From an uncultured Gemmatimonadales bacterium (GTDB lineage Bacteria; Gemmatimonadota; Gemmatimonadetes; Longimicrobiales; RSA9): a stretch of 64,000 nucleotides of DNA. Shown here piece by piece: positions 1 to 13,796 of this stretch (positions within the stretch are counted from its first letter, which is position 1; each line of letters opens with the position of its first letter). The position numbers were made by a program, and so were the translations under genes. The notes under the pieces are model-generated. The model saw nothing but the letters and a program-made list of their open reading frames with translations, made no database searches and was not told the DNA's origin. The stretch spans positions 832,001 to 896,000 of the forward strand of contig OY970192.1 of NCBI GenBank assembly GCA_963708135.1, written 5' to 3'.

Positions 1-1073
1 AACCACACCGCGTGCCGGATCCGCTCCCCCAGGCTCTCCGCTGCCGGTGTCGAGGCCAGGGCATAGGCGTTGGCGTCCATCCCCTGCGGAAACTGGATGC
101 GATAACACCCGATTCCGTCCGCCGCGAGTTGCTCGGCCAGTGCGGCCGCCGCGCTCTCGCCCGCCGCGTCCCGGTCGTAGGCGATCAGCACGCGCTCGGT
201 GCCGTATCTGCGAAACGCCTCGTGATGCGCCGCCGTGAAGCCGCTCACCCCGTAGCTCGCCGTCACGTTCCGGTAGCCCGCGCACCAGAAGCTCAGCGCA
301 TCGAGCAGCGCCTCGCACAGGATGACCTCCTTCGACTCCGCCAGCGCCGCTTCGTTCCACACCCCCGCGTGCGCCCCCGGCAGGTAGAGGTGCAGCGGCG
401 TGCCTGCCCGCAGTCCCTCCGTGATCTTGCGACCGTACATCTCCCGCACCGCTTCATCGGCATCGATCACCGGCACCACCAGCGAGCCGGTGAAATGCTC
501 GTGTCCGCTCGGTCGCAGGATCCCCAGCCGCTGCAGCCGACTCCGGATCTCCGCTCCCGCCTTGAGCGCCTTCTTCGGCAGGTGGTAGCCCAGCGTCCGG
601 TTGGCGAAGCCCAGTTGGAAGCGGTCAATATCCGCCACCTGGGCGAGGCCCCGCTTCTCCAGGTAGGCGATGGCTTCCGGACTCTCCTTCAGCGTCTCGT
701 GGTAGTAGCCCACCACCTGCTGCAGCAGCGCCTGGTCATCGACGTCCGGCTCCAGCAGCGGCGGCAGTGCTCTGGCCTTTGCACTCGCGGCGGGCGCACC
801 CCGCAGGATCTCCACCGCGTGCCGGAAGCTCACCCCCTCGCGCCGCATCACCCAGTCGATCACGCTCCCGCCCGCCTGGCACGCGCCCAGGCAGTGCCAC
901 AGCCCTTTCGCCGGGCTCACCACCAGACTCGGCTCGTGGTCCTCGTGGAACGGACACAGCCCCAGCAGGTCCGCGCCGTGCCGCCGCAGCTTCACTCCGC
1001 TCCCCTCCACCAGCCCCACCAGGTCCGCCTCGCGCTTGAGCCGCTCCAACTCCTCCCTCTGGATCCGGGCCAT
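1..1073 (-). CDS. CHC2 zinc-finger/TOPRIM DNA primase-like protein of a mobile element (runs off window edge)
   Basis: Manual translation from ATG 1073 (GGAGGAGG/AGGAG upstream): MARIQREELERLKREADLV...GLCPFHEDHEPSLVV...WHCLGACQAGGSVIDWV...ILCEALLDALSFW...LIAYDRDAAG; not in ORF track because it is open at the edge. Confidence 0.85.
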   Translation of the reverse strand, partial: MARIQREELERLKREADLVGLVEGSGVKLRRHGADLLGLCPFHEDHEPSLVVSPAKGLWHCLGACQAGGSVIDWVMRREGVSFRHAVEILRGAPAASAKARALPPLLEPDVDDQALLQQVVGYYHETLKESPEAIAYLEKRGLAQVADIDRFQLGFANRTLGYHLPKKALKAGAEIRSRLQRLGILRPSGHEHFTGSLVVPVIDADEAVREMYGRKITEGLRAGTPLHLYLPGAHAGVWNEAALAESKEVILCEALLDALSFWCAGYRNVTASYGVSGFTAAHHEAFRRYGTERVLIAYDRDAAGESAAAALAEQLAADGIGCYRIQFPQGMDANAYALASTPAAESLGERIRHAVW

Positions 1074-1176
1074 GGCTCCTGCCTCCTCCGGAAATCCCGT
1101 CAATGGACCCTTGCGTCTCTTGTGGTATGGACTAATATGTCATCATCGCACCGGACGCAAGAGAGGAGGCCTTATC

Positions 1177-1563
1177 ATGATCGACCACGTGAAGCTCTAT
1201 CCCGAGGTCGATATGGAGCAGTTCCCGGAGACCCTCAAGCTGCTGAGGGAAAGCAGGGGTCTGACGCAGGCCCGGCTTGCCGAGTTGATCGAGGCCAGTC
1301 CGCGCGTCTACAATCGGTGGGAAACGGGCGCGGCGGCCCCGCGGCTAGACACTCTCGTGAAGATCGCTGACATCCTCAACGTCAGCCTGGACGAGCTCGT
1401 CGGGCGCACCGAGCCCAGTTCCGAGGTCGAGATCCAGAATCCCAGGCTCCACGCCCTCTACCGCCACATCGATCGGCTCTCCGACGAGGACCAGCAGGCC
1501 GTCATCATCCTTCTCGACTCTCTCGTCAAGCGGTCCCAGATGGACCAGATCCTCGCTTCCTGA
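1177..1563 (+). CDS. XRE-family HTH transcriptional regulator, divergent from primase
   Basis: LKLLRESRGLTQARLAELIEASPRVYNRWETG...P Cro/C1 HTH; GAGGAGG before ATG 1177 (alternative start 1213). Confidence 0.85.
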   Translation: MIDHVKLYPEVDMEQFPETLKLLRESRGLTQARLAELIEASPRVYNRWETGAAAPRLDTLVKIADILNVSLDELVGRTEPSSEVEIQNPRLHALYRHIDRLSDEDQQAVIILLDSLVKRSQMDQILAS

Positions 1564-1741
1564 CCAGCCACCGCCGCCCACGGGAACGAGCAGCTAAAGG
1601 AAGAAGCCCGGCCATCGCTGGTCGGGCTCTCCGGCTTCATGCCTGTGTCTCGGCACCGTTGCGGGCTCCGCTCCGGCGTGCCGGCCTCGCATTATGCGCC
1701 CTCGCCCTCGGCGCGCCTCCGCTCCGGGCGCTTCGCGCCTC

Positions 1742-1760
1742 TACATAACCGGGTTATGCA
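1742..1760. other. dif-like palindrome, candidate tyrosine-recombinase site
   Basis: TA-CATAACC-G-GGTTATG-CA; CATAA...TTATG arms as in dif but with a 5-bp rather than 6-bp centre. Confidence 0.4.
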
Positions 1761-1806
1761 AACCCGCTGCGGCAGATCTCGTTGACAAAACGCCATATTC
1801 ATTTGC

Positions 1807-2256
1807 TCATTCAGAGTTCAGCGGAGACTGACTGGCAACTTGCGTCGATTCCGAGAATTCCCATGCCTTAAAAGTAATCTCGATCCACGAGTAGCCCTCG
1901 CGGCGAAATGACGCTTTGTAGCTGGGCCCGGTCAGCCGTGAACGAACCAAGGCTCCAGCATCTTCGACTCGAAGGCAAGCGATTTCGCCGAAGCCCCAAC
2001 CAAGTGATGCCTCCTTCTGCATCACTGAGTCAGAGAGTTCGTTGATAACGTGCAGTTCACTCACGCCGCAGAAGCGGATTGACACAATACGCCGGTCAGC
2101 GTATTGGGTCCGAATCGTTCCATCCTCCTGCCACACGAAGTCAATGTCGATGCTGAGGGACGCGCCCCAGTTCAGCCACTGGACGCCGACAACAACACAC
2201 TCCTCGAAATCGCGGTACGCGTGAAGCTCTGCTCTCAATACAGGCAATCCGCTCAT
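1807..2256 (-). CDS. Putative immunity protein for toxin tip 1
   Basis: 149 aa, ATGA overlap with stop of upstream Rhs-CT ORF, visibly lower GC. Confidence 0.7.
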   Translation of the reverse strand: MSGLPVLRAELHAYRDFEECVVVGVQWLNWGASLSIDIDFVWQEDGTIRTQYADRRIVSIRFCGVSELHVINELSDSVMQKEASLGWGFGEIACLRVEDAGALVRSRLTGPSYKASFRREGYSWIEITFKAWEFSESTQVASQSPLNSE

Positions 2257-4205
2257 CGATTCCAGATGTTAAGATGCGTGGTCGCGTTGGGACCAGGGTT
2301 ACCCAGCGCGTCGAGATAGTTGCGAGCTGCATTCATGATGCGCAGTTGCCAACCATTTTCCCGCCGCATTAAGCGAACTTCTTCGCCCGTTCCATTCGTG
2401 AAAAGGTAGCCACTCTTATTCTCCGTCAGTCCCATCACAAACCCGTTCTCTTTCAGAATTGCGCGAATTCCAATGATCGACTCATCCGCAAGTCCGCCTC
2501 CCTCCGAGAACAGCGCGCGTAGCCCGGCGCTCGCTCCCCGTAGCCCCCGCCCGACGGCACCACCACCCACCGTGAATGCCGCCATTGCGAAGCCGCGTCC
2601 GGCGTGACCACTCCCGATATCGAAGCCAGCATCAAACGCTGCGGTGATCGGATTGACATCGTTGATCGCATTCAACCCAGCTGCGGCATTGAGCACCACG
2701 CCGCCCAGGCCACCGCCACGCTGCGCTCCCCAATTTGCCGCTTTCTGCAAGCAATCTTCAATCGGCGGGCACAATCCGAACGGGTCGGTATAAGACGCGG
2801 GGTTGTTGCCCGCATACGCATAGAGGTTAAGCCCGCCGGCAAATCCGATGGGGTCTTCCTGCGTGAACCTCCCCAATCTGGCGTCGTAGTAGCGGTTGCG
2901 GAAGAAGGCTCCGGTCTCCTGGTTCGAGTCGCCGTTGCGGGCGGGGGCGAAGCTGTAGCTTTCGCGGATGGCACCCGACTGCGAGCCCCAGGTACTCCAC
3001 GCCGGGAGCTCGTTTCCGTTCGTGTCCGTGATGCAGTTCTCGCCCTGCGGGCCCTGGAAGCTGAACAGTCGTTCGCGATGCGTGATGAAATATGCGCGCT
3101 TGTCGTTCAGGCTGCCGAGGGGACACGCAGCGTTGCCGTACATCATCAGCGGGTCGTCGAGCCCCGGCCCGTCCACGAACTCGACCGTCGAGTGCTCGAT
3201 CACGTTCTGACCATCGTAGAAGGTCTCCGCGCCGGAGTGGGCATAAGCGCCGCGGATCCGCCGGCCCAGGCCGTCGTAGCGGAAGAAGGCGGTATCGGGG
3301 TGAGTGCCGGAGAGCTGGCCGGCGGCGCTGTAGTAGCGGTGCCAGGTGTAGGCGGTCCCGGCGTAGGTGCCCTGCTCGAGCGTCTCGTTGCCGTTCGCGT
3401 CGTAGCTGAAGTCGACGCTCTCCGGACCGGAGACGCCGCTGTAGTAGCGGGTCCGGCGGGTCACCTCGTTCGAGAGGCCGTCGAGCTGGAAGAGCACGCT
3501 GTCGGCGCACAGGCTGCCGCGCACGCACAGGTACTCTTTCACGCGGTTGCCGGCCGCGTCGTAGACCATGCTGTCGGTCGAGGACGTCCCTCCAGGGTGG
3601 CTCTGACTCGTATAGCGGATGCGCCCGCTCCCGTCGTAGGCCCAGCGGTCCACCCAGGTCGCGTTATTGGTCTCGTTGCCGCGGTTGACGACCGAATCAG
3701 GCCGCCCAGCGGCGTCGTAGGCGAAGCTCAGGTCCACGGCGGTGTCACCGCTCGTGGCGTTGACGGAGATGACGCGCGCGATCTGCCCGTCTTTCGTGTA
3801 ACCGTAGCTCGTTTTCGTGGTGTTGGGCAGCCAGACCGTGTCGCGCCGCCCGAGCGCGTCGTAGTGGAACGAGATCATCTCGCCAGCGGGCGTCTGGATC
3901 TGGGAGACGAGCCCGCCCGGCCCGAGGGTGTAGGTGTACGTCCCCTTCGGCGTGCTCAGCGTATGGCGGCCCGCCCACTGATAGGCCGAGCTGTAGGTGC
4001 GCTGCGTGCCGGACCACTTGTGGAGCTGCGTGCTTGAGGCGAGGGTGCCTTCCTTGTTGAAGACCCGCGTGACCTGCGAGCTGTCCTCATCGAGCATGGT
4101 GACGTTACCGGCCGCGTCATACTGGAGGTTGATCGTCGTGCCGACCACGCCGAGGACGCCATTCTGGTAGGTGGATGAGAGGACGCGCTGCTTCGGGCGA
4201 TTCAC
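2253..4205 (-). CDS. 5'-truncated (orphan) Rhs core with toxin tip 1
   Basis: YD repeats, RYYD...GRFTQEDPIG...NPASYTDPFGL core end, unique C-terminus; no signal peptide; copy of the main Rhs. Confidence 0.8.
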   Translation of the reverse strand: MNRPKQRVLSSTYQNGVLGVVGTTINLQYDAAGNVTMLDEDSSQVTRVFNKEGTLASSTQLHKWSGTQRTYSSAYQWAGRHTLSTPKGTYTYTLGPGGLVSQIQTPAGEMISFHYDALGRRDTVWLPNTTKTSYGYTKDGQIARVISVNATSGDTAVDLSFAYDAAGRPDSVVNRGNETNNATWVDRWAYDGSGRIRYTSQSHPGGTSSTDSMVYDAAGNRVKEYLCVRGSLCADSVLFQLDGLSNEVTRRTRYYSGVSGPESVDFSYDANGNETLEQGTYAGTAYTWHRYYSAAGQLSGTHPDTAFFRYDGLGRRIRGAYAHSGAETFYDGQNVIEHSTVEFVDGPGLDDPLMMYGNAACPLGSLNDKRAYFITHRERLFSFQGPQGENCITDTNGNELPAWSTWGSQSGAIRESYSFAPARNGDSNQETGAFFRNRYYDARLGRFTQEDPIGFAGGLNLYAYAGNNPASYTDPFGLCPPIEDCLQKAANWGAQRGGGLGGVVLNAAAGLNAINDVNPITAAFDAGFDIGSGHAGRGFAMAAFTVGGGAVGRGLRGASAGLRALFSEGGGLADESIIGIRAILKENGFVMGLTENKSGYLFTNGTGEEVRLMRRENGWQLRIMNAARNYLDALGNPGPNATTHLNIWNR

Positions 4206-4207
4206 TC
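2844..4207. repeat. 1,364-bp near-identical copy of 9207-10570
   Basis: Constant offset 6363; only difference noticed is 3556 G vs 9919 T (YDAAG vs YDEAG). Confidence 0.9.
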
Positions 4208-4697
4208 AGGACGAGGTACGTCTCCTCCTCGAGCTGCTGGCGATGTACGACCGGCAGATCGCGGCCGTGGAGGAAGCGATGGTCTTCGCCCTCCGTCGGG
4301 CCCCGGAGGCGAAGGCGCTGATGTCGATCCCCAAGCTCGGCGCGGTCACCGCGGCTGTCTTCCTGGGTTCGATCGGCGATCCGAGGGCGTACGAGTCGAG
4401 CCGGCAGGCGCTCCGCGTGGGTGGCCTCTCATTGGTCGTGCAGGAGAGCGGGCTGCTCCGCGGCAAGCCGCGCCTCAGCAAGCGGGGCCGGCCCGAGATG
4501 CGACGGCAGGCGTACATGTTCGCGGCCGCAGCGTGATGAAGGGTGGGCTCTACCGGGAGGCGTTCGACCGCGCCCTGGCCGAGAACCCGCAGAAGCCGAA
4601 GAAGAAGATCCTGGTGGCCCTGGCGCGGCGCGCCACGAAGCTCATGTTCAGCGTCGCGCGGGACCGGAGGCTGTACACGCCGGATGGCCCGAAGTAG
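4208..4697 (+). pseudogene. IS110-family transposase C-terminal fragment, frameshifted near 4527-4536
   Basis: SIPKLGAVTAAVFLGSIGDPRAYESSRQ...ESG...LSKRGRPEMRRQAYMFA, then in another frame SVMKGGLYREAFDRALAENPQKPKKKILVALARRATKLMF...PK*. Confidence 0.9.
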
Positions 4698-4975
4698 GAT
4701 TCCGGCAGGTGAAAGAGCGGAAGGGCTGCGGCATCCTGCCGAGCCCTCCCGCGAGCACCAGACGCAGGCTGGAGAGTGGAGCCGGCAATCCATCGAAGGA
4801 GTTGCAGAAGCGCTCGGCGCCGCAGCTCGCTTCCGAATGCTGGAACGCTCCCTCCGGCCCAGAGCCCGCTCAAGTCTCCGAGGAAGGCGTGTCGAGGACC
4901 CTCCGGGGTGCCTCCAAGGAACTGAGGGTATCGAGCTACGCGAGCCCGAGCGGTCTGGGTGCGATTTGACAACTC
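4698..4975 (+). ncRNA. Bridge-RNA-like structured noncoding region, copy A
   Basis: Directly 3' of IS110 gene; blocks conserved with 7653-7949; closing stem GCACCAGAC(4755)/GTCTGGGTGC(4953); two internal-loop hairpins. Confidence 0.65.
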
Positions 4976-5028
4976 CGTATACTACCTGCCGAGACCCCGA
5001 CCGGGCGGTCGCGGCACCAGTGGCGCGT

Positions 5029-5215
5029 GCCCGGCGTGGACCCGCCATGTCCCTTGAGGCGGCGTTGCCGGCCTCCGATGGTGGACTCGGTCACGTCGGG
5101 CAGCGCGCTCTTTCACGTCAAACACCCACCGACAGCGCTGCCCGGCATGGGTCCGACAATCCGGTTGAGGCGCGTCCTGCGGCCTCCGATACCGGACTCG
5201 ATCATGCCGGGCAGC
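5029..5215 (+). repeat. Two 73-nt hairpin units with variable internal loops (A1 5029-5101, A2 5140-5212)
   Basis: Scaffold GCCCGGCRYGG..CCGA-N10-GAGG(hairpin)CCTC-N7-GGACTCGRTCRYGYCGGGC. Confidence 0.85.
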
Positions 5216-5220
5216 TTCGG

Positions 5221-5622
5221 CTACCGCCTGACCGGTTCACCGTCGATGCTTACGCCGCGGGCGATGACGACGAGCGACGCAGCATCATCGAAGTATAGGC
5301 GGTAGCGCGTGATTGGAGGGCGCGGCACTGTCTCGTGCCAACCCACTGAAGTGTTCCAACGAGCCTCCAGCTCTTGAATGTCGGCGGCAGCTGTCTCAGC
5401 CACGATGTAGTCCGGTCCGATGACGTCTTCTTCTACGCAGACGGCGCCCGCCGTGTATTCGACCCGAAGCACGTCGGAGAAGGTGACTTCGGTCCATTTC
5501 GTCTCTCCTTCTTCAGTAGTGTCGTACCGAACCGTTGCGAAGCCTTCGGACATGTTCACGACCGGACCAGCCAGCGTGTGACTGGTGCGGCGTGGCAGAT
5601 CAATCAAGGTCGTCATGTTCAC
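5221..5622 (-). CDS. Putative immunity protein for toxin tip 2
   Basis: 133 aa, GTGA overlap with tip 2 stop; lower GC. Confidence 0.7.
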   Translation of the reverse strand: MNMTTLIDLPRRTSHTLAGPVVNMSEGFATVRYDTTEEGETKWTEVTFSDVLRVEYTAGAVCVEEDVIGPDYIVAETAAADIQELEARWNTSVGWHETVPRPPITRYRLYFDDAASLVVIARGVSIDGEPVRR

Positions 5623-6124
5623 CTGATTACAGGGGTGAACGTCGGAGATGCAGAGCCCGCCATCTCAGCGAGGCGTTCCGTTAGCTGCCTCTCAAACATT
5701 GCATTGCCCGTAACATTGTTGATTACGGTCGGCCTCATGCCCGCGATCCTCAACGCCATCAGCGAGCGGTTGTTCATCGTGTACGACACGCCATCTCGAA
5801 CAACGACGTTTAGGGGCAGCTGACTTGGTGTGATCGCACCGCTTCTCAGGCCGGCCGCCACATCAGAGATCGACTGACCTGCAAACTCGCCGTGACGGAA
5901 GCTCGACGAAATACCCCTCTGGGCGAACTGTACCGCTCCCTCGTCAGCGGCTGCGGTGGCGACGCTGCGTCCGATCAGTGCTCGGATCCCGCCTGCGATG
6001 CCGCCTGCGAGAAACGCTACCGGATCTAGCAGACCAGGGCCACGGAGACCTGGTTCGTGTCCTGGACACCCCGTATGCCACTCAGTCTCCGGAGGGCACA
6101 ATCCGAAGGGATCGGTATAGGAGG
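5619..6124 (-). pseudogene. Orphan Rhs toxin tip 2, ParB/Srx-like toxin domain
   Basis: Begins SYTDPFGLCPP with no Rhs core; FAQRGISSSF...L..G.I.P.QLPL.V...G..Y..NNRSL.AL..AG resembles Tox-ParB-like domains. Confidence 0.75.
6112..6124. repeat. 13-bp direct repeat TCGGTATAGGAGG, left junction (partner 9148-9160)
   Basis: Exact match at both ends of the 3,036-bp unit. Confidence 0.85.
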
Positions 6125-6440
6125 GACGCCTCTAACCCAATGCGCCCCGATTCGGCCTCCGATCAGCCTACCTCCGACGCCACCTCCCGCCGTCTCAATC
6201 AGCCCTCCTGACACCCTCCCGAACAGCGAAACCCTTCACCATACCACCCGCAGCTCCACCGCCTCAGGCGGGGTCGACTGCCTTCCATTCACCCGGATTC
6301 CGCGCCCGATCCTGGCGGTGATACGGTTCCGGGTTCCGCCTCCGTCCCGGCGGCCCCGGCTCAGAGCGCCATAGAGCACGATTCCGCCATCGGTGCGGCC
6401 CACGGTACCGCTCTGGTCCACTTCAACCAGGAGCGAGACC

Positions 6441-7652
6441 ATGAGCCGTTTCGAGAAGCGCCGCCGGGCCCAGCGCGCCGCCGCCGTCGCCGGAGTGGAC
6501 GCGGGCAAGCGGAAGCACGCGATCGCGGTCCGGCCGCGCGGCGGCGAGGATAGCACGCCGCTCGAGTTCCAGACGACGCGAGCCGGCTTCGAGACCGCGG
6601 TCCGCGCGATCCTCGAGAACGCTCCGGGCACACGACCCGAGGACGTGCTGGTCGGCATTGAGTTCGCCGGCAACTACGGCTTCACCTTCGCCCACTTCCT
6701 GCGCGACCGCGGCTTCCAGGTCGTGAACGTGCTCGGCGCCCACAGCAAGCGCTGGAAGGAGGTGGTCCACAACCAGGGGCTGAAGAGCGACCCCAAGGAC
6801 GCGCTCACGATCACCGACATGGTGGCGCAGGGCGCCTTCGTCGGCTTCCCGTTCCTCGAGCAGGTCTACGCCGACCTGCGCTACCTGGTCAGCATGCGCG
6901 AGCGGCTGACGAAGCTCCGGAGCGCGACGATCGCGCGGCTGAAGGACGTGCTCCAGGTCGTCTGGCCGGAGTTCGAGCGGCGCTTCAAGAACTTCAGCAA
7001 GAAGACGCCGATCGCGATCCTGGAGGCGTTCCCCGGGCCGGATGCGTTCCTGCGCGCACCGAAGCGGCGCGTGCTGAAGGTGATCCGGGAGGCGAGCCGG
7101 GGTCATCTGGGCGAGGCCGCCTACGAGCACCTGCGGTGCGCGGCCGAGGACACCGTGGCGCTCCCCGGCGCGCAGGGCGTGCTTGCGCAGGAGGTCGGCC
7201 TCCAGCTCGATCTGCTCGCGTCCTACGAGCGCCAGATCGCCGAGGTCGAGCGCCTCATGGCCGAGCGGCTGGTGGACGCGCCGGAGGCGCCCTCGCTCCT
7301 CTCGGTGCCGAAGCTCGGCGCCGTGACGGCCGCCGTGTTCCTCGGCTCGATCGGCGACCCGCGGGCCTACGACTCGAGCCGGCAGGCGCTCAAGGTCGGC
7401 GGCCTCGGGCTCGTCGTGAGCGAGAGCGGCGCCCAGCGCGGCCGGCCCGAGCTCCGGCGCCAGATGTACATGTTCGCGGTGCGGAGCGTGAGCCGGGGCG
7501 GCCTGTTCCGGGCGGAATACGAGCGGGCGCTCGAGCGCAATCCGAACACGCCGAAGAAGAAGGTGCTGGTCGCGCTCGCGCGGAAGGCGACGCGGCTCAT
7601 GTTCGCGCTCGCGAAGGAGCGGCGGCTGTACACGATGGAACCGCCGCGGTAG
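6441..7652 (+). CDS. IS110-family DEDD transposase/recombinase
   Basis: GVDAGK, GIEFAG, KSDPKDA (DEDD), SVPKLG HhH, ESG serine loop, KKKVLVALARK; AGGAG before ATG 6441. Confidence 0.93.
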   Translation: MSRFEKRRRAQRAAAVAGVDAGKRKHAIAVRPRGGEDSTPLEFQTTRAGFETAVRAILENAPGTRPEDVLVGIEFAGNYGFTFAHFLRDRGFQVVNVLGAHSKRWKEVVHNQGLKSDPKDALTITDMVAQGAFVGFPFLEQVYADLRYLVSMRERLTKLRSATIARLKDVLQVVWPEFERRFKNFSKKTPIAILEAFPGPDAFLRAPKRRVLKVIREASRGHLGEAAYEHLRCAAEDTVALPGAQGVLAQEVGLQLDLLASYERQIAEVERLMAERLVDAPEAPSLLSVPKLGAVTAAVFLGSIGDPRAYDSSRQALKVGGLGLVVSESGAQRGRPELRRQMYMFAVRSVSRGGLFRAEYERALERNPNTPKKKVLVALARKATRLMFALAKERRLYTMEPPR

Positions 7653-7949
7653 GTTGGGGGAATCAACACCATGGGAGGGCCGGCTGGCGCGGTGCGCGCC
7701 GGCCCTCCTACAGTGCACCAGACGCAGGCCGGGGGATGGAGCAGAAGAATCCATCGAAGGGGCCGTCTCGCACGAACGTGAGGCCTGCTTCCCAAGGTCG
7801 GACCCGCTCCCCCTGACCCAGAGTTCGCCACAGTCTCCGAGGAAGGCGTGTCGAGGGCCACGCGCGGCAGACGCCGCCACGGTGCCTCCGAGGACTTGAG
7901 GGTATCGAGCTACGCGATCTCGAGTGGTCTGGGTGCGATTTGACAACTC
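7653..7949 (+). ncRNA. Bridge-RNA-like structured noncoding region, copy B
   Basis: Closing stem GCACCAGAC(7715)/GTCTGGGTGC(7927); conserved AATCCATCGAAGG and AGTCTCCGAGGAAGGCGTGTCGAGG with variable-length hairpins. Confidence 0.65.
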
Positions 7950-8006
7950 AGCGCTTGCCTTCGCCGTCGCGGCGTCGAGCCGGCCGCGACGGAACGGGTG
8001 GCGTGT

Positions 8007-8293
8007 GCCCGGCGCGGATCCGACATCCAGCCTGAGGCGGCCCAGCCGGTCTCCCATGATGGACCTGATCGCGTCGGGTACGCTCTTCCTCATGGGCATC
8101 GGCGCCGGCATGGATCCGAGAACCCGGACGAGGCGCGTTCTGCGGCCTCCCATGTGGGACTCGGTCGTGCCGGGCCGCACCTCCCCGCCGGGCTGGCCAA
8201 CGGGGAGGTGAGCGGAACGGGGCCGGTGTGGATCCGATAATCCGGTCGAGGGGTCACGGACCGCCTCCAACATCGGACTCGATCGCACCGGCC
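8007..8293 (+). repeat. Three 73-nt hairpin units (B1 8007-8079, B2 8103-8175, B3 8221-8293)
   Basis: Same scaffold as A1/A2 with compensatory stem changes and distinct loops. Confidence 0.85.
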
Positions 8294-8670
8294 TATTTCT
8301 TTCGCCGCATCGATTCCTCTGTTTGGCTACAGACCGCGGTCATCGCTGGCCCCATGTACGACCGGGCAGTTTTCATCCAGTCCGAATTGTCGGTTAGCCT
8401 CTCGCAAACGCTGAATGCGGCAATCTCCTGCACCTTCGGATCCGGATGGGCGGCCAGTATTTCGAGGGAGTCGAAGACTCTCCGAATCTCGGCCCCGTCA
8501 TTCCGCTCGATCGCGGCGATAAGATGCGGGGTGAGCAGATCACCATAGATGATGTGAGGGCCGGGACGTTCAGTGCCCCACCATTCCAGTTCTTTTTCGT
8601 ACTTTTCCCTCAACTCTGGTATGCTGGTGATCAAGTGATCCACAACAGTCTCGTATTTGATCTCTGTCAT
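8293..8670 (-). CDS. Putative immunity protein for toxin tip 3
   Basis: 125 aa, TGATG coupling to Rhs stop, lower GC. Confidence 0.75.
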   Translation of the reverse strand: MTEIKYETVVDHLITSIPELREKYEKELEWWGTERPGPHIIYGDLLTPHLIAAIERNDGAEIRRVFDSLEILAAHPDPKVQEIAAFSVCERLTDNSDWMKTARSYMGPAMTAVCSQTEESMRRKK

Positions 8671-11600
8671 CAGTGCCCTCGAAGTGCATTCTGGAGGTCC
8701 GTAAGAACTCGCTGGGCGGTTGTTCGGTCGGCAGCGCTGAGCTCCTCCTGCTGAAGAATTCGTTGAAGCTGACGGGCACGCTGTTGGCCCTTGAGAAGAT
8801 GCGACCGGCCTCCCACGAGTTCACCGGTCCGTAGCTCCTCCCTGATTGCTCCAGCGGTCCCGCCAGGTAGCTTGTCGCCCGCACGGAACAGTTGCTCGAT
8901 GGCGCCTTGGAGGCGTGCGTTAGCGGCTGCCGGGATCTCATTCGCGAAGGCCCCGTACTGACGAATACGATTTGCATTTCGCAGTCCCTCAACAAGACCC
9001 CCTCCCACTGCTCCGAGGGCGGCGTCTGTGATTCCCTGGGAGAGTGTATAGTCCCCCCCGAGCGCTTTCGTGATAAGGTAACCCTCGGCGACACCTACAA
9101 CGGCACCTGCGGCGATTTCAAAGCAGATCGGGCAGAGTCCAAACGGGTCGGTATAGGAGGCCGGATTATCCCCGTTGTAGCTGTAGAGGTTGAGCCCGCC
9201 CGCAAGTCCGATGGGGTCTTCCTGCGTGAACCTCCCCAATCTGGCGTCGTAGTAGCGGTTGCGGAAGAAGGCTCCGGTCTCCTGGTTCGAGTCGCCGTTG
9301 CGGGCGGGGGCGAAGCTGTAGCTTTCGCGGATGGCACCCGACTGCGAGCCCCAGGTACTCCACGCCGGGAGCTCGTTTCCGTTCGTGTCCGTGATGCAGT
9401 TCTCGCCCTGCGGGCCCTGGAAGCTGAACAGTCGTTCGCGATGCGTGATGAAATATGCGCGCTTGTCGTTCAGGCTGCCGAGGGGACACGCAGCGTTGCC
9501 GTACATCATCAGCGGGTCGTCGAGCCCCGGCCCGTCCACGAACTCGACCGTCGAGTGCTCGATCACGTTCTGACCATCGTAGAAGGTCTCCGCGCCGGAG
9601 TGGGCATAAGCGCCGCGGATCCGCCGGCCCAGGCCGTCGTAGCGGAAGAAGGCGGTATCGGGGTGAGTGCCGGAGAGCTGGCCGGCGGCGCTGTAGTAGC
9701 GGTGCCAGGTGTAGGCGGTCCCGGCGTAGGTGCCCTGCTCGAGCGTCTCGTTGCCGTTCGCGTCGTAGCTGAAGTCGACGCTCTCCGGACCGGAGACGCC
9801 GCTGTAGTAGCGGGTCCGGCGGGTCACCTCGTTCGAGAGGCCGTCGAGCTGGAAGAGCACGCTGTCGGCGCACAGGCTGCCGCGCACGCACAGGTACTCT
9901 TTCACGCGGTTGCCGGCCTCGTCGTAGACCATGCTGTCGGTCGAGGACGTCCCTCCAGGGTGGCTCTGACTCGTATAGCGGATGCGCCCGCTCCCGTCGT
10001 AGGCCCAGCGGTCCACCCAGGTCGCGTTATTGGTCTCGTTGCCGCGGTTGACGACCGAATCAGGCCGCCCAGCGGCGTCGTAGGCGAAGCTCAGGTCCAC
10101 GGCGGTGTCACCGCTCGTGGCGTTGACGGAGATGACGCGCGCGATCTGCCCGTCTTTCGTGTAACCGTAGCTCGTTTTCGTGGTGTTGGGCAGCCAGACC
10201 GTGTCGCGCCGCCCGAGCGCGTCGTAGTGGAACGAGATCATCTCGCCAGCGGGCGTCTGGATCTGGGAGACGAGCCCGCCCGGCCCGAGGGTGTAGGTGT
10301 ACGTCCCCTTCGGCGTGCTCAGCGTATGGCGGCCCGCCCACTGATAGGCCGAGCTGTAGGTGCGCTGCGTGCCGGACCACTTGTGGAGCTGCGTGCTTGA
10401 GGCGAGGGTGCCTTCCTTGTTGAAGACCCGCGTGACCTGCGAGCTGTCCTCATCGAGCATGGTGACGTTACCGGCCGCGTCATACTGGAGGTTGATCGTC
10501 GTGCCGACCACGCCGAGGACGCCATTCTGGTAGGTGGATGAGAGGACGCGCTGCTTCGGGCGATTCACTCCGTCGTACTGGATCGCGACGGTGCTGCTGT
10601 CGCGGTTCCTGCGGAGCGTCAGGTTGCCGGCGAGGTCGTAGGCATGGAACTCCGTTGCTCCCATCCCATCGATCATCGCGGTATCCTCGCCCAGCGCGTT
10701 GTAGTGCCAGCTGCGGGAAAAGGTCATGCGCGGGTCGACAGCCGTTGTCCGGTCGCCATCCGCGTCGTACGTGAAGTGGCTCGCACGTCTGTAGACGCCG
10801 TCGTAGTGATCCACCTCGGTGAGATTCCCCAAGGCGTCATGCACGTAGGTCAAACTGTCGCCAACGGGATTGGTCACCCGCCGAACCTGGCCGTTGGCGT
10901 CGTACGCGTAGCTCGTGGTGTGACCCTCGGGCGTGGTGCTCGAGAGCAGGTTGCCAGCATTGGAATCGTCGTTGGCGAGGATGGTGCTGAGATCCTGCAC
11001 GGTATCGCCGTAGACAGGTACCGACTGCTCGGTCACGCTCGCGACCTGGCCGCGCGAGTTGTAGGTGAAGCTGGTCTCGTGACCACGCGGGTCGATGACA
11101 TTGTCGAGCGTCCCGTCCGTGGAGCTGTAGTTGAAGGTGGTCGTGTCTCGGGTCGCGCCCGAGCGCGGTGCGATGACCTTCCACGGTTTGTCGGGTGCGG
11201 CGGTCGAGTAGAGGTAGACTGTGGAATCCGCGCCCGCGCTGGATGTGAGGTCCGCGGCGTTCCGAACGCGGCCGACGACGTCGTACGCAGTGGTGGTCTG
11301 GCGGCCGTTCGGCCAATCGACCTCCTTCGGCAGCAGCGGGAAGTTGGAGTCGTACGTCAGCACGGTGGTGTTGCCCACGGCGTCGATGATCCTCGTCGGT
11401 GCCCCGAAGCGGTCGAGGTAGAACTTCGTGATCTGAATGGTGTGGGTGCGCGGTCCCCGCACCTCGAAGTCCGCGCTTGCCGCGGCGTAGGTGTCGTTCA
11501 GCCCGGTCGCGGTCGTTGCGAGGCCGAGAGTCTGGAGAGGAGTGAACGTTGTCACGGGTGTGCCGGCGCTGACCGTCGGCAGCGTGTCGGCCGCGAGCAG

Positions 11601-13796
11601 CGCGGTCTCGCCCGTATACGAGTACTTCGTCGCATGGCCAAGGCGTGAGGTCCAGCGCGTCAGCAGGTGAGCGGCGTAGGCAAGCACGATCGCGGAGTCG
11701 GGGCGGTCCGGAAGGTAGAAGTCGGTCAGATCGCCCGAGCCGTTGACGGTGATGTTCATGGCGCGCGAAGCAGGGTCGGTGACCGCGCTCAGCTTCGCGT
11801 TCGGGCTGCCGTAGGCGAAGGTGTAGACCCTGCTCTGGTCCCAGGGTGCGATGCGGATCTGGGAGACCCCACTGCCCGCCCCGCCCGTGTAGCTGTACTG
11901 CACCTTGTTCGAAACGCGATCCTGGACCCAGGTCTCCTGGCCGGCCGTGTTGAAGTAGAGCTGGGTGCCGTCGAGCAGCCGCCGGCGGTAATGGGTCGTC
12001 GAGCTCCCGCTCGGATCGACCGCTGTCTCGTAGAAGATGGTGTCGCGGTGCGCACCGACGGGGGCGAGGTAGGCGCTGCCGCCGATGGCGTCGTAGACGG
12101 CCGTGCTGCCGTCCCCGTCGACGAGCAGGACCGCGGTTCCGGATCGCTGGTTCGGGTAGAGCTCTTCGACACCCGCGATGCCCCAGCCGGCCCCGTAAGG
12201 ACCCGCGGAGCGATTCACGACGATCAGGTCGCCGCTCGCCGCCGTCTCGCAGGTGGCACAGATCGTGTCGCTGTAGACATCGGCCACCGTCAACGTGAAG
12301 GTGTGCAGGCCCGTCGTGACGCCGGCGGCCGCCGCGTCGAACCCGACCGCGATCCGACGGGCGTTGCCGCCAGGGGCAATGCGAAGGTCGTTGAACCAAC
12401 GCACGGCCCGCGTGACGCCATCGACGACGAGGGTGGCCTTAAGGCTGTCGGGCACGCGGATGCCCAGGTCGAGCGCGACATTCGCGAGCACGATCGGATA
12501 CGGCTTTGCCGTTCCGCTCGTGTAGAGCAGCGTGAGGGCGCGGTCGCGGTTCATGGTCCGGTAGGCCGGCATCCCCTGTGCGACGAGCAGCTCACCGCAT
12601 TGCGAGGCGCCGGCCGGTCCCGCGCCGACCGTGACGCACGAGGAGCGGGGCATGAGCGAACCGGGGTTGATCGCGGCGTTGACCTCGATCGGGCCCTCGG
12701 GGGCCGTGGGGTTCCCCACCGTGACGTTGTAGGAGCCGCTGTCGCTGCCGCCGGTCCCGGTGGCGGTGAGCGTGATGGTCCCGTAGCCGGCCGAGGCGGC
12801 CGAGAACCTGACGGTCACGGAGCTCGCGCCGTTCGCTCCCACCGTTACGGATGGATCGACCGAACAGTAGGTCACCTGACCGGTGAACCCGCACGCGAGC
12901 GTGTAGGTCAGAGGGGAGCCGTTCGGATTCGAGACGGTGAAGAACGCGCCATTGCCAGACGTGTTGGCGTTTACCGTCAGGCTGCCACTGTCTGGCGTCA
13001 CGGATGGAGGCAGGGTGCCCGATGGATTCACCGTGAACGTCACGGCCACGCTCTGCGGCGAGTTGTCGGCGTTCGCATCGGAGACGCTCACGCTGCCGGT
13101 GTAGGTTCCGGTGGCGAGCGTGCCGGTATGGGCCGTGACGCTGACGCTGCCGTTGCCGGTTCCAGATCCCGGGCTCACGCTCAACCAGGATGCTCCCGGT
13201 GAAGCCGTCCAGTCGAGCGTGCCGCCGCCCGAGTTGGTGACGCTCACGCTCTGTGGTGCCGGATCCGCTCCGCCCTGCGACGCGCTGAACGAGAGGCTCG
13301 TCGGACTCAGGACGATGTGCGGCGTCGTCGTCTGGAGATTGACATAGCAGTTCGTGTATTCGGCAGGTGGCGGGCTGTTCGGCAGGCTCGGCGCTGGCGA
13401 CGCGCCCTGGTTGGCGACGCTGAGCGTGACGTAGCCGTTGCTCGGGCTGGACCCGACGGCGTAGGTGATCGTCACGTCGGCGGCGCTGCCCGCCGCGATC
13501 GTGATCGAGCTCTGTACGGAGCAGGACGTAACGGGCGCCACGAACGAGCATCCGAGGTCGTACGTCGTCGTGGGGTTGTTCTTGTTGTCGAGGTGGAAGA
13601 TGGCGCCGTTTCCGCTGCTGTTGGGCGCGACCGTCATGGGCGAGTTCGTCGCCGAGACGGTCGGGAGTCCCGTCCCCGTCTCGGGGCCACCAACCGCGTG
13701 CGCTGGCTGGCCGACGAGCGCCGCGATGGCGCCGAGGGTGAGGATGCGAGCTGCGGAACGAGCGGCAGCTCGAATGGAAGGCCGCGTTCTGGGCAT
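8670..13796 (-). CDS. Full-length Rhs/YD-repeat polymorphic toxin with signal peptide and BACON/Ig-like N-terminal domains
   Basis: N-terminal basic+hydrophobic segment ending AHA; SPTSLSF...WLSVSP BACON-like; YD repeats; QEDPIG...DNPASYTDPFGL; variable C-terminal tip. Confidence 0.92.
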   Translation of the reverse strand: MPRTRPSIRAAARSAARILTLGAIAALVGQPAHAVGGPETGTGLPTVSATNSPMTVAPNSSGNGAIFHLDNKNNPTTTYDLGCSFVAPVTSCSVQSSITIAAGSAADVTITYAVGSSPSNGYVTLSVANQGASPAPSLPNSPPPAEYTNCYVNLQTTTPHIVLSPTSLSFSASQGGADPAPQSVSVTNSGGGTLDWTASPGASWLSVSPGSGTGNGSVSVTAHTGTLATGTYTGSVSVSDANADNSPQSVAVTFTVNPSGTLPPSVTPDSGSLTVNANTSGNGAFFTVSNPNGSPLTYTLACGFTGQVTYCSVDPSVTVGANGASSVTVRFSAASAGYGTITLTATGTGGSDSGSYNVTVGNPTAPEGPIEVNAAINPGSLMPRSSCVTVGAGPAGASQCGELLVAQGMPAYRTMNRDRALTLLYTSGTAKPYPIVLANVALDLGIRVPDSLKATLVVDGVTRAVRWFNDLRIAPGGNARRIAVGFDAAAAGVTTGLHTFTLTVADVYSDTICATCETAASGDLIVVNRSAGPYGAGWGIAGVEELYPNQRSGTAVLLVDGDGSTAVYDAIGGSAYLAPVGAHRDTIFYETAVDPSGSSTTHYRRRLLDGTQLYFNTAGQETWVQDRVSNKVQYSYTGGAGSGVSQIRIAPWDQSRVYTFAYGSPNAKLSAVTDPASRAMNITVNGSGDLTDFYLPDRPDSAIVLAYAAHLLTRWTSRLGHATKYSYTGETALLAADTLPTVSAGTPVTTFTPLQTLGLATTATGLNDTYAAASADFEVRGPRTHTIQITKFYLDRFGAPTRIIDAVGNTTVLTYDSNFPLLPKEVDWPNGRQTTTAYDVVGRVRNAADLTSSAGADSTVYLYSTAAPDKPWKVIAPRSGATRDTTTFNYSSTDGTLDNVIDPRGHETSFTYNSRGQVASVTEQSVPVYGDTVQDLSTILANDDSNAGNLLSSTTPEGHTTSYAYDANGQVRRVTNPVGDSLTYVHDALGNLTEVDHYDGVYRRASHFTYDADGDRTTAVDPRMTFSRSWHYNALGEDTAMIDGMGATEFHAYDLAGNLTLRRNRDSSTVAIQYDGVNRPKQRVLSSTYQNGVLGVVGTTINLQYDAAGNVTMLDEDSSQVTRVFNKEGTLASSTQLHKWSGTQRTYSSAYQWAGRHTLSTPKGTYTYTLGPGGLVSQIQTPAGEMISFHYDALGRRDTVWLPNTTKTSYGYTKDGQIARVISVNATSGDTAVDLSFAYDAAGRPDSVVNRGNETNNATWVDRWAYDGSGRIRYTSQSHPGGTSSTDSMVYDEAGNRVKEYLCVRGSLCADSVLFQLDGLSNEVTRRTRYYSGVSGPESVDFSYDANGNETLEQGTYAGTAYTWHRYYSAAGQLSGTHPDTAFFRYDGLGRRIRGAYAHSGAETFYDGQNVIEHSTVEFVDGPGLDDPLMMYGNAACPLGSLNDKRAYFITHRERLFSFQGPQGENCITDTNGNELPAWSTWGSQSGAIRESYSFAPARNGDSNQETGAFFRNRYYDARLGRFTQEDPIGLAGGLNLYSYNGDNPASYTDPFGLCPICFEIAAGAVVGVAEGYLITKALGGDYTLSQGITDAALGAVGGGLVEGLRNANRIRQYGAFANEIPAAANARLQGAIEQLFRAGDKLPGGTAGAIREELRTGELVGGRSHLLKGQQRARQLQRILQQEELSAADRTTAQRVLTDLQNALRGH
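9148..9160. repeat. 13-bp direct repeat, right junction inside rhs (A-S-Y-T-D codons)
   Basis: TCGGTATAGGAGG identical to 6112-6124. Confidence 0.85.
9207..10570. repeat. Source copy of the 1,364-bp Rhs duplication
   Basis: Matches 2844-4207. Confidence 0.9.

Follow-up and report, generated by a model that had tools for sequence, protein, structure and literature searches.

The loading of orphan Rhs-CT/immunity modules onto an Rhs core is usually ascribed to homologous recombination. Arrays of guide units, and a home site plus a second target class, are known from TIGR-Tas and CRISPR-associated transposons with two targeting routes. For IS621, PMC11208158, in the parts used here, describes a right target guide that pairs with the donor core after strand exchange, a handshake with the two preceding donor letters, and a loosely specified first core letter. 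The main text of a preprint on IS110 elements with large cargo (10.64898/2026.08.14.744561) mentions neither Rhs, toxins nor TBL, and its supplements may include the present clade; as far as its main text goes, repeats were called at an identity of at least 95% and read as donor-bounded duplications. We found no description of an Rhs-targeting IS110 or of a multi-target-loop array in the literature searched, most subscription papers and supplements lying outside that search, and a role of an IS110 bridge RNA in toxin-tip exchange is apparently undescribed so far. Here we report a locus whose hairpin units, judged by sequence comparison, likely act as alternative target loops of one bridge RNA that would plug a toxin tip and a likely immunity gene into an Rhs gene. 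We put the probability of this reading at roughly 0.8.

Stacked elements behind an Rhs gene

The window is a 64-kb stretch of the source genome G000 (C1:832001-896000), and its positions are counted from 1; the labels E1 to E4 and the junction numbering used below were coined in the present analysis. Along the minus strand, the locus consisted of a 1708-aa Rhs gene, a tip, a small ORF, element B, an orphan tip, another small ORF, and element A. The host Rhs gene (8670..13796, minus strand) was unbroken through the junction, matched TIGR03696 and YD repeats, and had the layout of an Rhs module: DPxG closes the core, after which come a variable tip and, downstream, a small ORF. Four similar elements or remnants (E1-E4) were present in the cluster upstream. 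The whole cluster contained 14 complete hairpin units and one partial unit, and an HMM of the units detected nothing below E 0.5 in the rest of the source genome. Each element was composed of a transposase, a predicted RNA, a likely immunity gene, and an Rhs toxin tip, and was inserted in frame at (D/G)-(N/D)-P. The elements were stacked, and a displaced tip preceded each one.

The IS110 transposase of element B (6441..7652, plus strand, 403 aa) scored over the cut-off for PF01548 and PF02371 and reached 158 bits for NF033542 (cut-off 140). D20, E74, D117, D120, and an SESG loop at 327 were all present. The protein was 95% identical to the intact E3 copy (C1:815163-816398) and 8 residues shorter; the missing residues mapped just past the SESG loop (window 7420-7445), and a contig of run X2 kept the corresponding 24 letters. 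Element B may be inactive. An internally deleted derivative of B, with its left end and both ends of the transposase gene, lay near a second Rhs locus (C1:2795105-2795634). A non-coding guide region was found downstream of the transposase with the top-strand match first, an order that agrees with the IS1111 group as described in the parts of PMC11187229 used here. Sub-terminal inverted repeats of 11-13 bp were absent, the best being 7 nt with one mismatch in B and 8 nt in E3. No circle or empty-site joint was seen in assembled contigs, the material compared.

Element A retained the 3' part of an IS110 transposase (4207..4697, plus strand), which was recognized by Pfam Transposase_20, tblastn, and alignment to B. 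Its 5' end was missing, the remnant being joined to a duplicated Rhs core, one frameshift lay near 4525-4533, and the left end of the element was lost. A contig spanning 3376-6052, from a run that may be the source sample, crossed the truncation joint, and a misassembly at 4206 is therefore unlikely. The identity between A and B was 67-69% in the transposase 3' part, the right end, and the array, in keeping with the divergence that an earlier note on this DNA had remarked upon. Element A represents an older layer that has decayed. Truncation of an IS110 by direct joining to an Rhs core fragment recurred at window 4206, at C1:827030, and in the metagenome contigs L028 and L032.

The cargo of A consisted of a 133-aa ORF (5221..5622, minus strand) with no Pfam or NCBIfam match and an Rhs C-terminal tip (5619..6124, minus strand) that starts with S-Y-T-D-P-F-G-L and is an orphan displaced by B. 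The cargo of B consisted of a DUF7674 ORF (8293..8670, minus strand) and a tip (8670..9159, minus strand) that at present continues the Rhs core in the same frame. The small cargo ORFs, assigned by position, are likely immunity genes. Of the cargo tips examined, 27/28 were open frames of 147-190 aa, most of them mutually unrelated. Two of the 15 tips scanned matched toxin families (Ntox10 and Tox-REase-9), and the other 13 matched none.

We numbered the Rhs junction 1-17 (GAT AAT CCG GC C TCC TA). Element B was bounded by a left donor-core-right target junction at 6118..6134 (minus strand; TAGAGGCGT CC CTCCTA) and by a left target-core-right donor junction at 9154..9170 (minus strand; GATAATCCG GC CTCCTA, encoding D-N-P-A-S-Y). 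Every orphan tip was preceded by an element left end and not by Rhs core, indicating that the tip and the small ORF belong to the element. Since one element end coincides with the beginning of the toxin tip, and the donor end resembles the target's right half, each insertion restores the junction and leaves the Rhs reading frame uninterrupted.

Another type of Rhs-tip element occupied window 1-4205 (C1:818,000-836,200), with a tyrosine integrase, a CHC2 primase, an HTH protein, its own tip, and a small ORF. It was present in two tandem copies, which were 100% identical across a compared stretch of 1800 bases, and an Rhs core fragment preceded each of them. The same Rhs junction seems to be fed by two different recombinase systems. 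A 424-aa transposase-like ORF (C1:813704-814978) interrupted the left end of E3, and a second copy (2787526-2788800) lay in the second Rhs locus, upstream of which was a short tandem repeat of GACAGACTCCT units (C1:2777880-2777965).

A donor loop followed by tandem target-type units

A single donor-binding loop was located upstream of each array and matched both element ends, its right strand reading the core and the first cargo letters. In element A, this loop (4872..4935, plus strand) had a left guide at 4882-4890 (GGAAGGCGT) and a right guide plus core at 4924-4928 (GAGGG), and it matched the donor end 6/6 at positions 4-9. The loop of element B (7831..7909, plus strand) had an identical left guide, and one donor guide was common to A, B, and E3. 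Between the donor loop and the array of A lay a TTGACA (4966..4971, plus strand), a possible -35 box; this hexamer or TTGAAA occupied the same place in 37/40 elements (window 4966-4971 and 7940-7945). A -10-like hexamer followed at 17 nt in 7/27 distinct sequences, from two clades, and was found at that distance in neither A nor B. No consensus promoter was detected in window 4200-9300.

Downstream of the transposase, the units formed 74-nt tandem hairpins. In each, an outer stem led into a left loop of 13-14 nt, which was followed by an inner hairpin, a right loop, likewise of 13-14 nt, and the closing stem; the order within a unit was left guide, inner hairpin, right guide, core, and handshake. 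The left loop corresponded to junction positions 1-9. The right loop, read as its reverse complement, gave the core (10-11) and then positions 12-17; next came AC, a handshake that complements donor positions 8-9 (GT), and GT was read in 45/58 distinct unit records. The order, the donor-type core in the right guide, the handshake, and the loose first core letter fit the IS621 structures as presented in the parts of PMC11208158 used here.

Two units in A and three in B had been counted in the earlier note, and both counts held. Unit A1 (5031..5104, plus strand) had its left guide at 5044-5052, right guide plus core at 5077-5084, and handshake AC at 5085-5086; CATGTCCCTT begins at 5046. Unit A2 (5142..5215, plus strand) was Rhs-directed, with a D-N-P left guide at 5155-5163, a right guide plus core at 5188-5195 reading CC-G-GTA-TC, and handshake AC at 5196-5197. 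The array of B (8009..8296, plus strand) had units at 8009, 8105, and 8223, namely B1, B2 (E-N-P), and B3 (D-N-P). The last unit was separated from the stop of the convergent ORF by about 8 nt in A and about 0 nt in B, within the 10 bp given in the earlier note; the spacing was looser in relatives (0-95 nt in the 28 elements examined).

The stems of 40 units, hand-chosen from about 85 HMM hits, were paired in 95.4% of 758 cells, with changes on both sides at 13/19 pairs; none of 500 shuffles scored as high, and slid controls gave 31-41%. Besides compensatory changes, G-U compatible changes were common. Hairpins as strong as these (z -2.8 to -5.6), wedged against a convergent ORF stop, might act as DNA-level structures, REP- or attC-like or as terminators between convergent genes, rather than as guides. 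We regard this as very improbable: the stem changes are often G-U compatible, no terminator-like site was found, Rfam yielded no family matching the units, and loop letters that lie outside the stems covary, in bridge-RNA order, with junctions far away, as described below. The units are best described as tandem target-binding loops of one predicted IS110 bridge RNA.

Relatives of the transposase were Gemmatimonadota, with 337 proteins matching at E at or below 1e-60. Loci were drawn from genome and metagenome contigs (33) and from 401 phylum genomes (18), a match being present in 10 of the latter. With a fixed pattern, 40 donor-loop-anchored elements were recovered, a set that includes near-duplicates and a few mis-parsed right loops; the pattern missed L003, L007, L015, L023, L026, L027, L039, L045, and a distant clade. 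For left-end tests, 22 elements remained after junction-less ones had been dropped together with A, L028, and L032, whose upstream junction is Rhs core. Permutation tests were run on distinct guide-site pairs, identical pairs being collapsed.

Among these Gemmatimonadota relatives, the guides covaried in one register with the element end, the cargo start, the 2-nt core, and the host Rhs junction. With p-values that overstate the case because the few elements are related and not independent, the left donor guide matched in 53/54 letters (p=7e-5, n=9), the right donor guide matched the cargo start in 21/27 (p=7e-4, n=9, one pair scoring 0/3), the donor-loop core guide matched in 6/9 pairs (p=0.002), the core in the target-loop right guide matched the junction core in 8/9 (p=6e-4), the last left guide matched the host Rhs in 94/117 (p=4e-4, n=13), the last right guide matched the right target in 47/75 (p=0.003), and the right guide of the best Rhs-type unit did so in 55/75 (p=3e-5, n=15). 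D-N-P guides occurred with D-N-P or N-N-P hosts, and G-D-P guides with G-D-P hosts. At best, the right guides of B agreed with the junction of B at 3/5 and those of E3 with the junction of E3 at 2/5, a poor fit that calls for loose right-arm pairing, action in trans, or later array exchange.

Unit number varied among the 40 elements (one parsed unit in 9, two in 22, three in 8, and none in 1), and 30/40 thus broke the bridge-RNA rule of one target loop per donor loop. The arrays were polar: x-(N/D/H)-P was encoded by 11/12 distinct last loops, 4/5 middle loops, and 0/15 first loops. Random drift of the loops, which would have told against the guide-like units of varying number and content proposed in the earlier note, was accordingly not what the array comparison revealed. 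Scaffolds also grouped by position, A1 being 70-75% like B1 and the first unit of E3, A2 76-79% like B2-type units, and B3 87% like the third unit of E4. E3, as an element 94% identical to B, had units 1-2 in common with it but differed in cargo, and the third unit of E3 had a foreign core guide, the only miss in the target-loop core test. Near-identical elements with different cargo were represented by B and E3 and also by the contig of run X2, which joins a B3-like end to the Rhs junction via 804 other letters. By these comparisons, units were likely gained by capture of the last loop of another element along with its cargo.

Rhs, attC, and the targets of first loops

The earlier note had matched the A2 loop to the Rhs D-N-P codons, and the match was reproduced: GACAATCCGG at 5155-5164 agreed in 9/10 letters with the Rhs sense strand GATAATCCGG (9161-9170, minus strand). 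The right-hand guide, the core, the handshake letters, and the tip and immunity gene as cargo had been overlooked there. The chance of at least 9/10 in a fixed register is 1.3e-5; the left arm alone nevertheless fails to single out Rhs, because the 10-mer is matched with at most one mismatch at 306 genomic sites. A2 predicts the target D-N-P-A-V-(Y/F). Its right arm matched the E3 junction at C1:813392 in 7/8 letters, the handshake also matching, and since the donor guide is common to A, B, and E3, an A2-type loop may have guided E3. The six best two-arm matches of A2 in the source genome included no present Rhs junction.

Non-terminal loops also had matching junctions. The junctions of L020/L021 and L024 matched the middle unit 5/5 and the last unit 1/5. 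Six insertions in relatives sat in integron attC-like sites matching a non-terminal loop, so that the arrays likely address two kinds of target. In L015, the match was 9/9 plus 5/5, and the rebuilt empty site folded like attC; in L039/L088, it was 9/9, with 6/6 to an intact sister attC; in L051/L087, it was 8/9 plus 6/6, and an IntI gene adjoined. Three copies in G191 at attC had right arms of 8/8, 7/8, and 7/8, weaker left arms of about 6/9, and differing tips. With 38-41% identity, L051 and the G191 copies belonged to the distant clade. When guides were compared with 108 attC-like sites from 20 loci, three of the four attC guides scored above shuffles (p 0.005, 0.005, and 0.025), the G191 guide giving p=0.19, and none of 21 other first-position guide entries or 4 Rhs-loop controls did so. 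Some first loops may accordingly be relics, given that those 21 unmapped guides matched no attC-like site above shuffles. The attC arrays with L087 and L085/L086 (G122, G191) lay downstream of intI, an inverted layout. IntI was matched in 175/401 phylum genomes and not in G000 (E at or below 1e-60).

A1 did not follow the Rhs arm, as the earlier note had stated, and matched the Rhs site in 3/9 letters in register. It has the scaffold, core (CC), and handshake (GT) of the Rhs loops, and because the core and handshake letters are kept, it was taken as a target-type loop. Searches of the source genome with both arms and wobble gave unrelated best matches; among the 401 phylum genomes, 7 were matched, similar to a reversed-pattern control; 24 stretches in viral contigs had no common context; and no target was found in the fetched loci of relatives. 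Neither A1 (p=0.87) nor B1 (p=0.65) matched the 108 attC-like sites above shuffles. A candidate motif for the A1/B1 target is near GCCATGTCC-nC-ACCA. Reading A1 as a start codon or as His-His found no support. The left loop of A1 has CGCCATG (window 5043-5049) in common with the attC-directed loop of the distant L051, the right arms being different. At C1:2777147, a lone Rhs tip start (ASYTDPFGLC) was joined to non-Rhs DNA, with a left flank 7/9 like the first loop of L014 and no element found adjoining; it may represent an insertion guided by a first loop.

That A1 addresses a site other than the Rhs arm remains likely, but the site hinted at in the earlier note, the element-end junction, is not supported. 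A1 would then have been a donor-binding loop, and the GTCCCT common to A1 and the 6118-6134 junction is what speaks for it. The hexamer is 2 nt out of register (2/9 to the donor end in register), is reached by 15% of shuffles, and is absent from B1. The loop at 4872-4935 is the real donor loop, and such separate upstream loops covary with both element ends; we give the donor reading of A1 almost no credence.

The last unit alone might work as a target loop, upstream units such as A1 being decayed duplicates without targets. This would agree with the lack of any match above chance for A1 and B1 in the genome, the 401 phylum genomes, viral contigs, and attC sites, and with the ability of the two loop strands of A1 to pair with each other. 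It is, however, improbable as a general account, because stems, core, and handshake are kept in first units, an identical first-loop sequence recurs among related elements, and the six attC insertions and L020-type junctions match non-terminal loops. It may hold for A1 alone, which may be a relic.

In the mechanism that we prefer, with alternative target loops on one bridge RNA, the transposase would pair one or another of these loops with the single donor loop and recombine a circular element into the matching site, as extrapolated from IS621. Middle and last loops would hold the left guide constant on (D/G)-(N/D)-P, the conserved codons, and differ in the right guide, which would read the codons, themselves variable, at the start of the resident tip. 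The first loops would address other sites, attC in the six mapped insertions of relatives. Element A is decayed; action of its A2 loop in trans would still be conceivable. We lean towards a wider view in which this multiplexed RNA, as an expandable array, shuttles toxin-immunity cassettes between reservoir sites (attC and other repeats, through the first loop) and the Rhs expression site (through the last loops), loops being gained with cargo.

The same mechanism could operate without any selected benefit to the host, if the Rhs junction were a safe harbour and the swapped tip a hitch-hiker that leaves the host gene intact. The parts of PMC11187229 used here report that ISEc21, an IS110, targets a conserved coding motif, those of 10.64898/2026.08.14.744561 that cargo-bearing IS110s are common, and the copies at attC sites carry unfused tips. 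We consider this rather unlikely, while granting it some weight, since nearly all tips (27/28) are open and mostly unrelated to one another and the first codons of the tip are tracked by the donor guide.

Comparison with known systems

If the proposed reading is true, bridge RNAs can be naturally multiplexed, a single donor loop being combined with as many as three target loops and the targets falling into two classes, and an IS110 is able to stack and to restore the target that it uses; this would be relevant to the design of multi-target bridge recombinases. As in IS621 (PMC11208160 and PMC11208158, in the parts used here), a DEDD plus Tnp recombinase is combined with loops that have a left and a right guide, a core of 2 nt with a loose first letter, and a donor handshake. 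Unlike in IS621 as presented there, the RNA lies downstream of the gene with the donor loop first and 1-3 target loops per donor loop, one element end codes for a toxin tip, and the target is restored upon insertion. The main text of 10.64898/2026.08.14.744561 states for IS110 in general that the target is not regenerated by insertion, whereas the Rhs-tip elements do rebuild it.

The seekRNA of the IS1111 group, in the parts of PMC11187229 used here, resembles the present RNA in deriving from a downstream non-coding region with the top-strand match first in element orientation, and the unit size falls within the 70-100 nt range of short seekRNAs. The present elements differ from that group as described there in having several guide units and no 11-13 bp sub-terminal inverted repeat. 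Some loops target attC, as in the IS1111-attC group (PMC11187229, same parts); here, unlike there, attC serves as an additional target next to Rhs and the cargo is a natural toxin-immunity pair.

The array recalls the two guide-array and dual-target systems introduced at the outset. In contrast to TIGR-Tas and CRISPR-associated transposons, a canonical IS110 recombinase serves here as the partner of units that are two-armed bridge loops of about 74 nt.

For the loading of orphan Rhs tips, the proposed mechanism provides a site-specific route that is concrete and open to testing, its guides being predicted. Like orphan Rhs-CT/immunity modules, the locus has silent pairs of tip and immunity gene stacked behind an Rhs gene; the present orphans start at an IS110 left-end junction without core homology, which argues for RNA-guided site-specific exchange.
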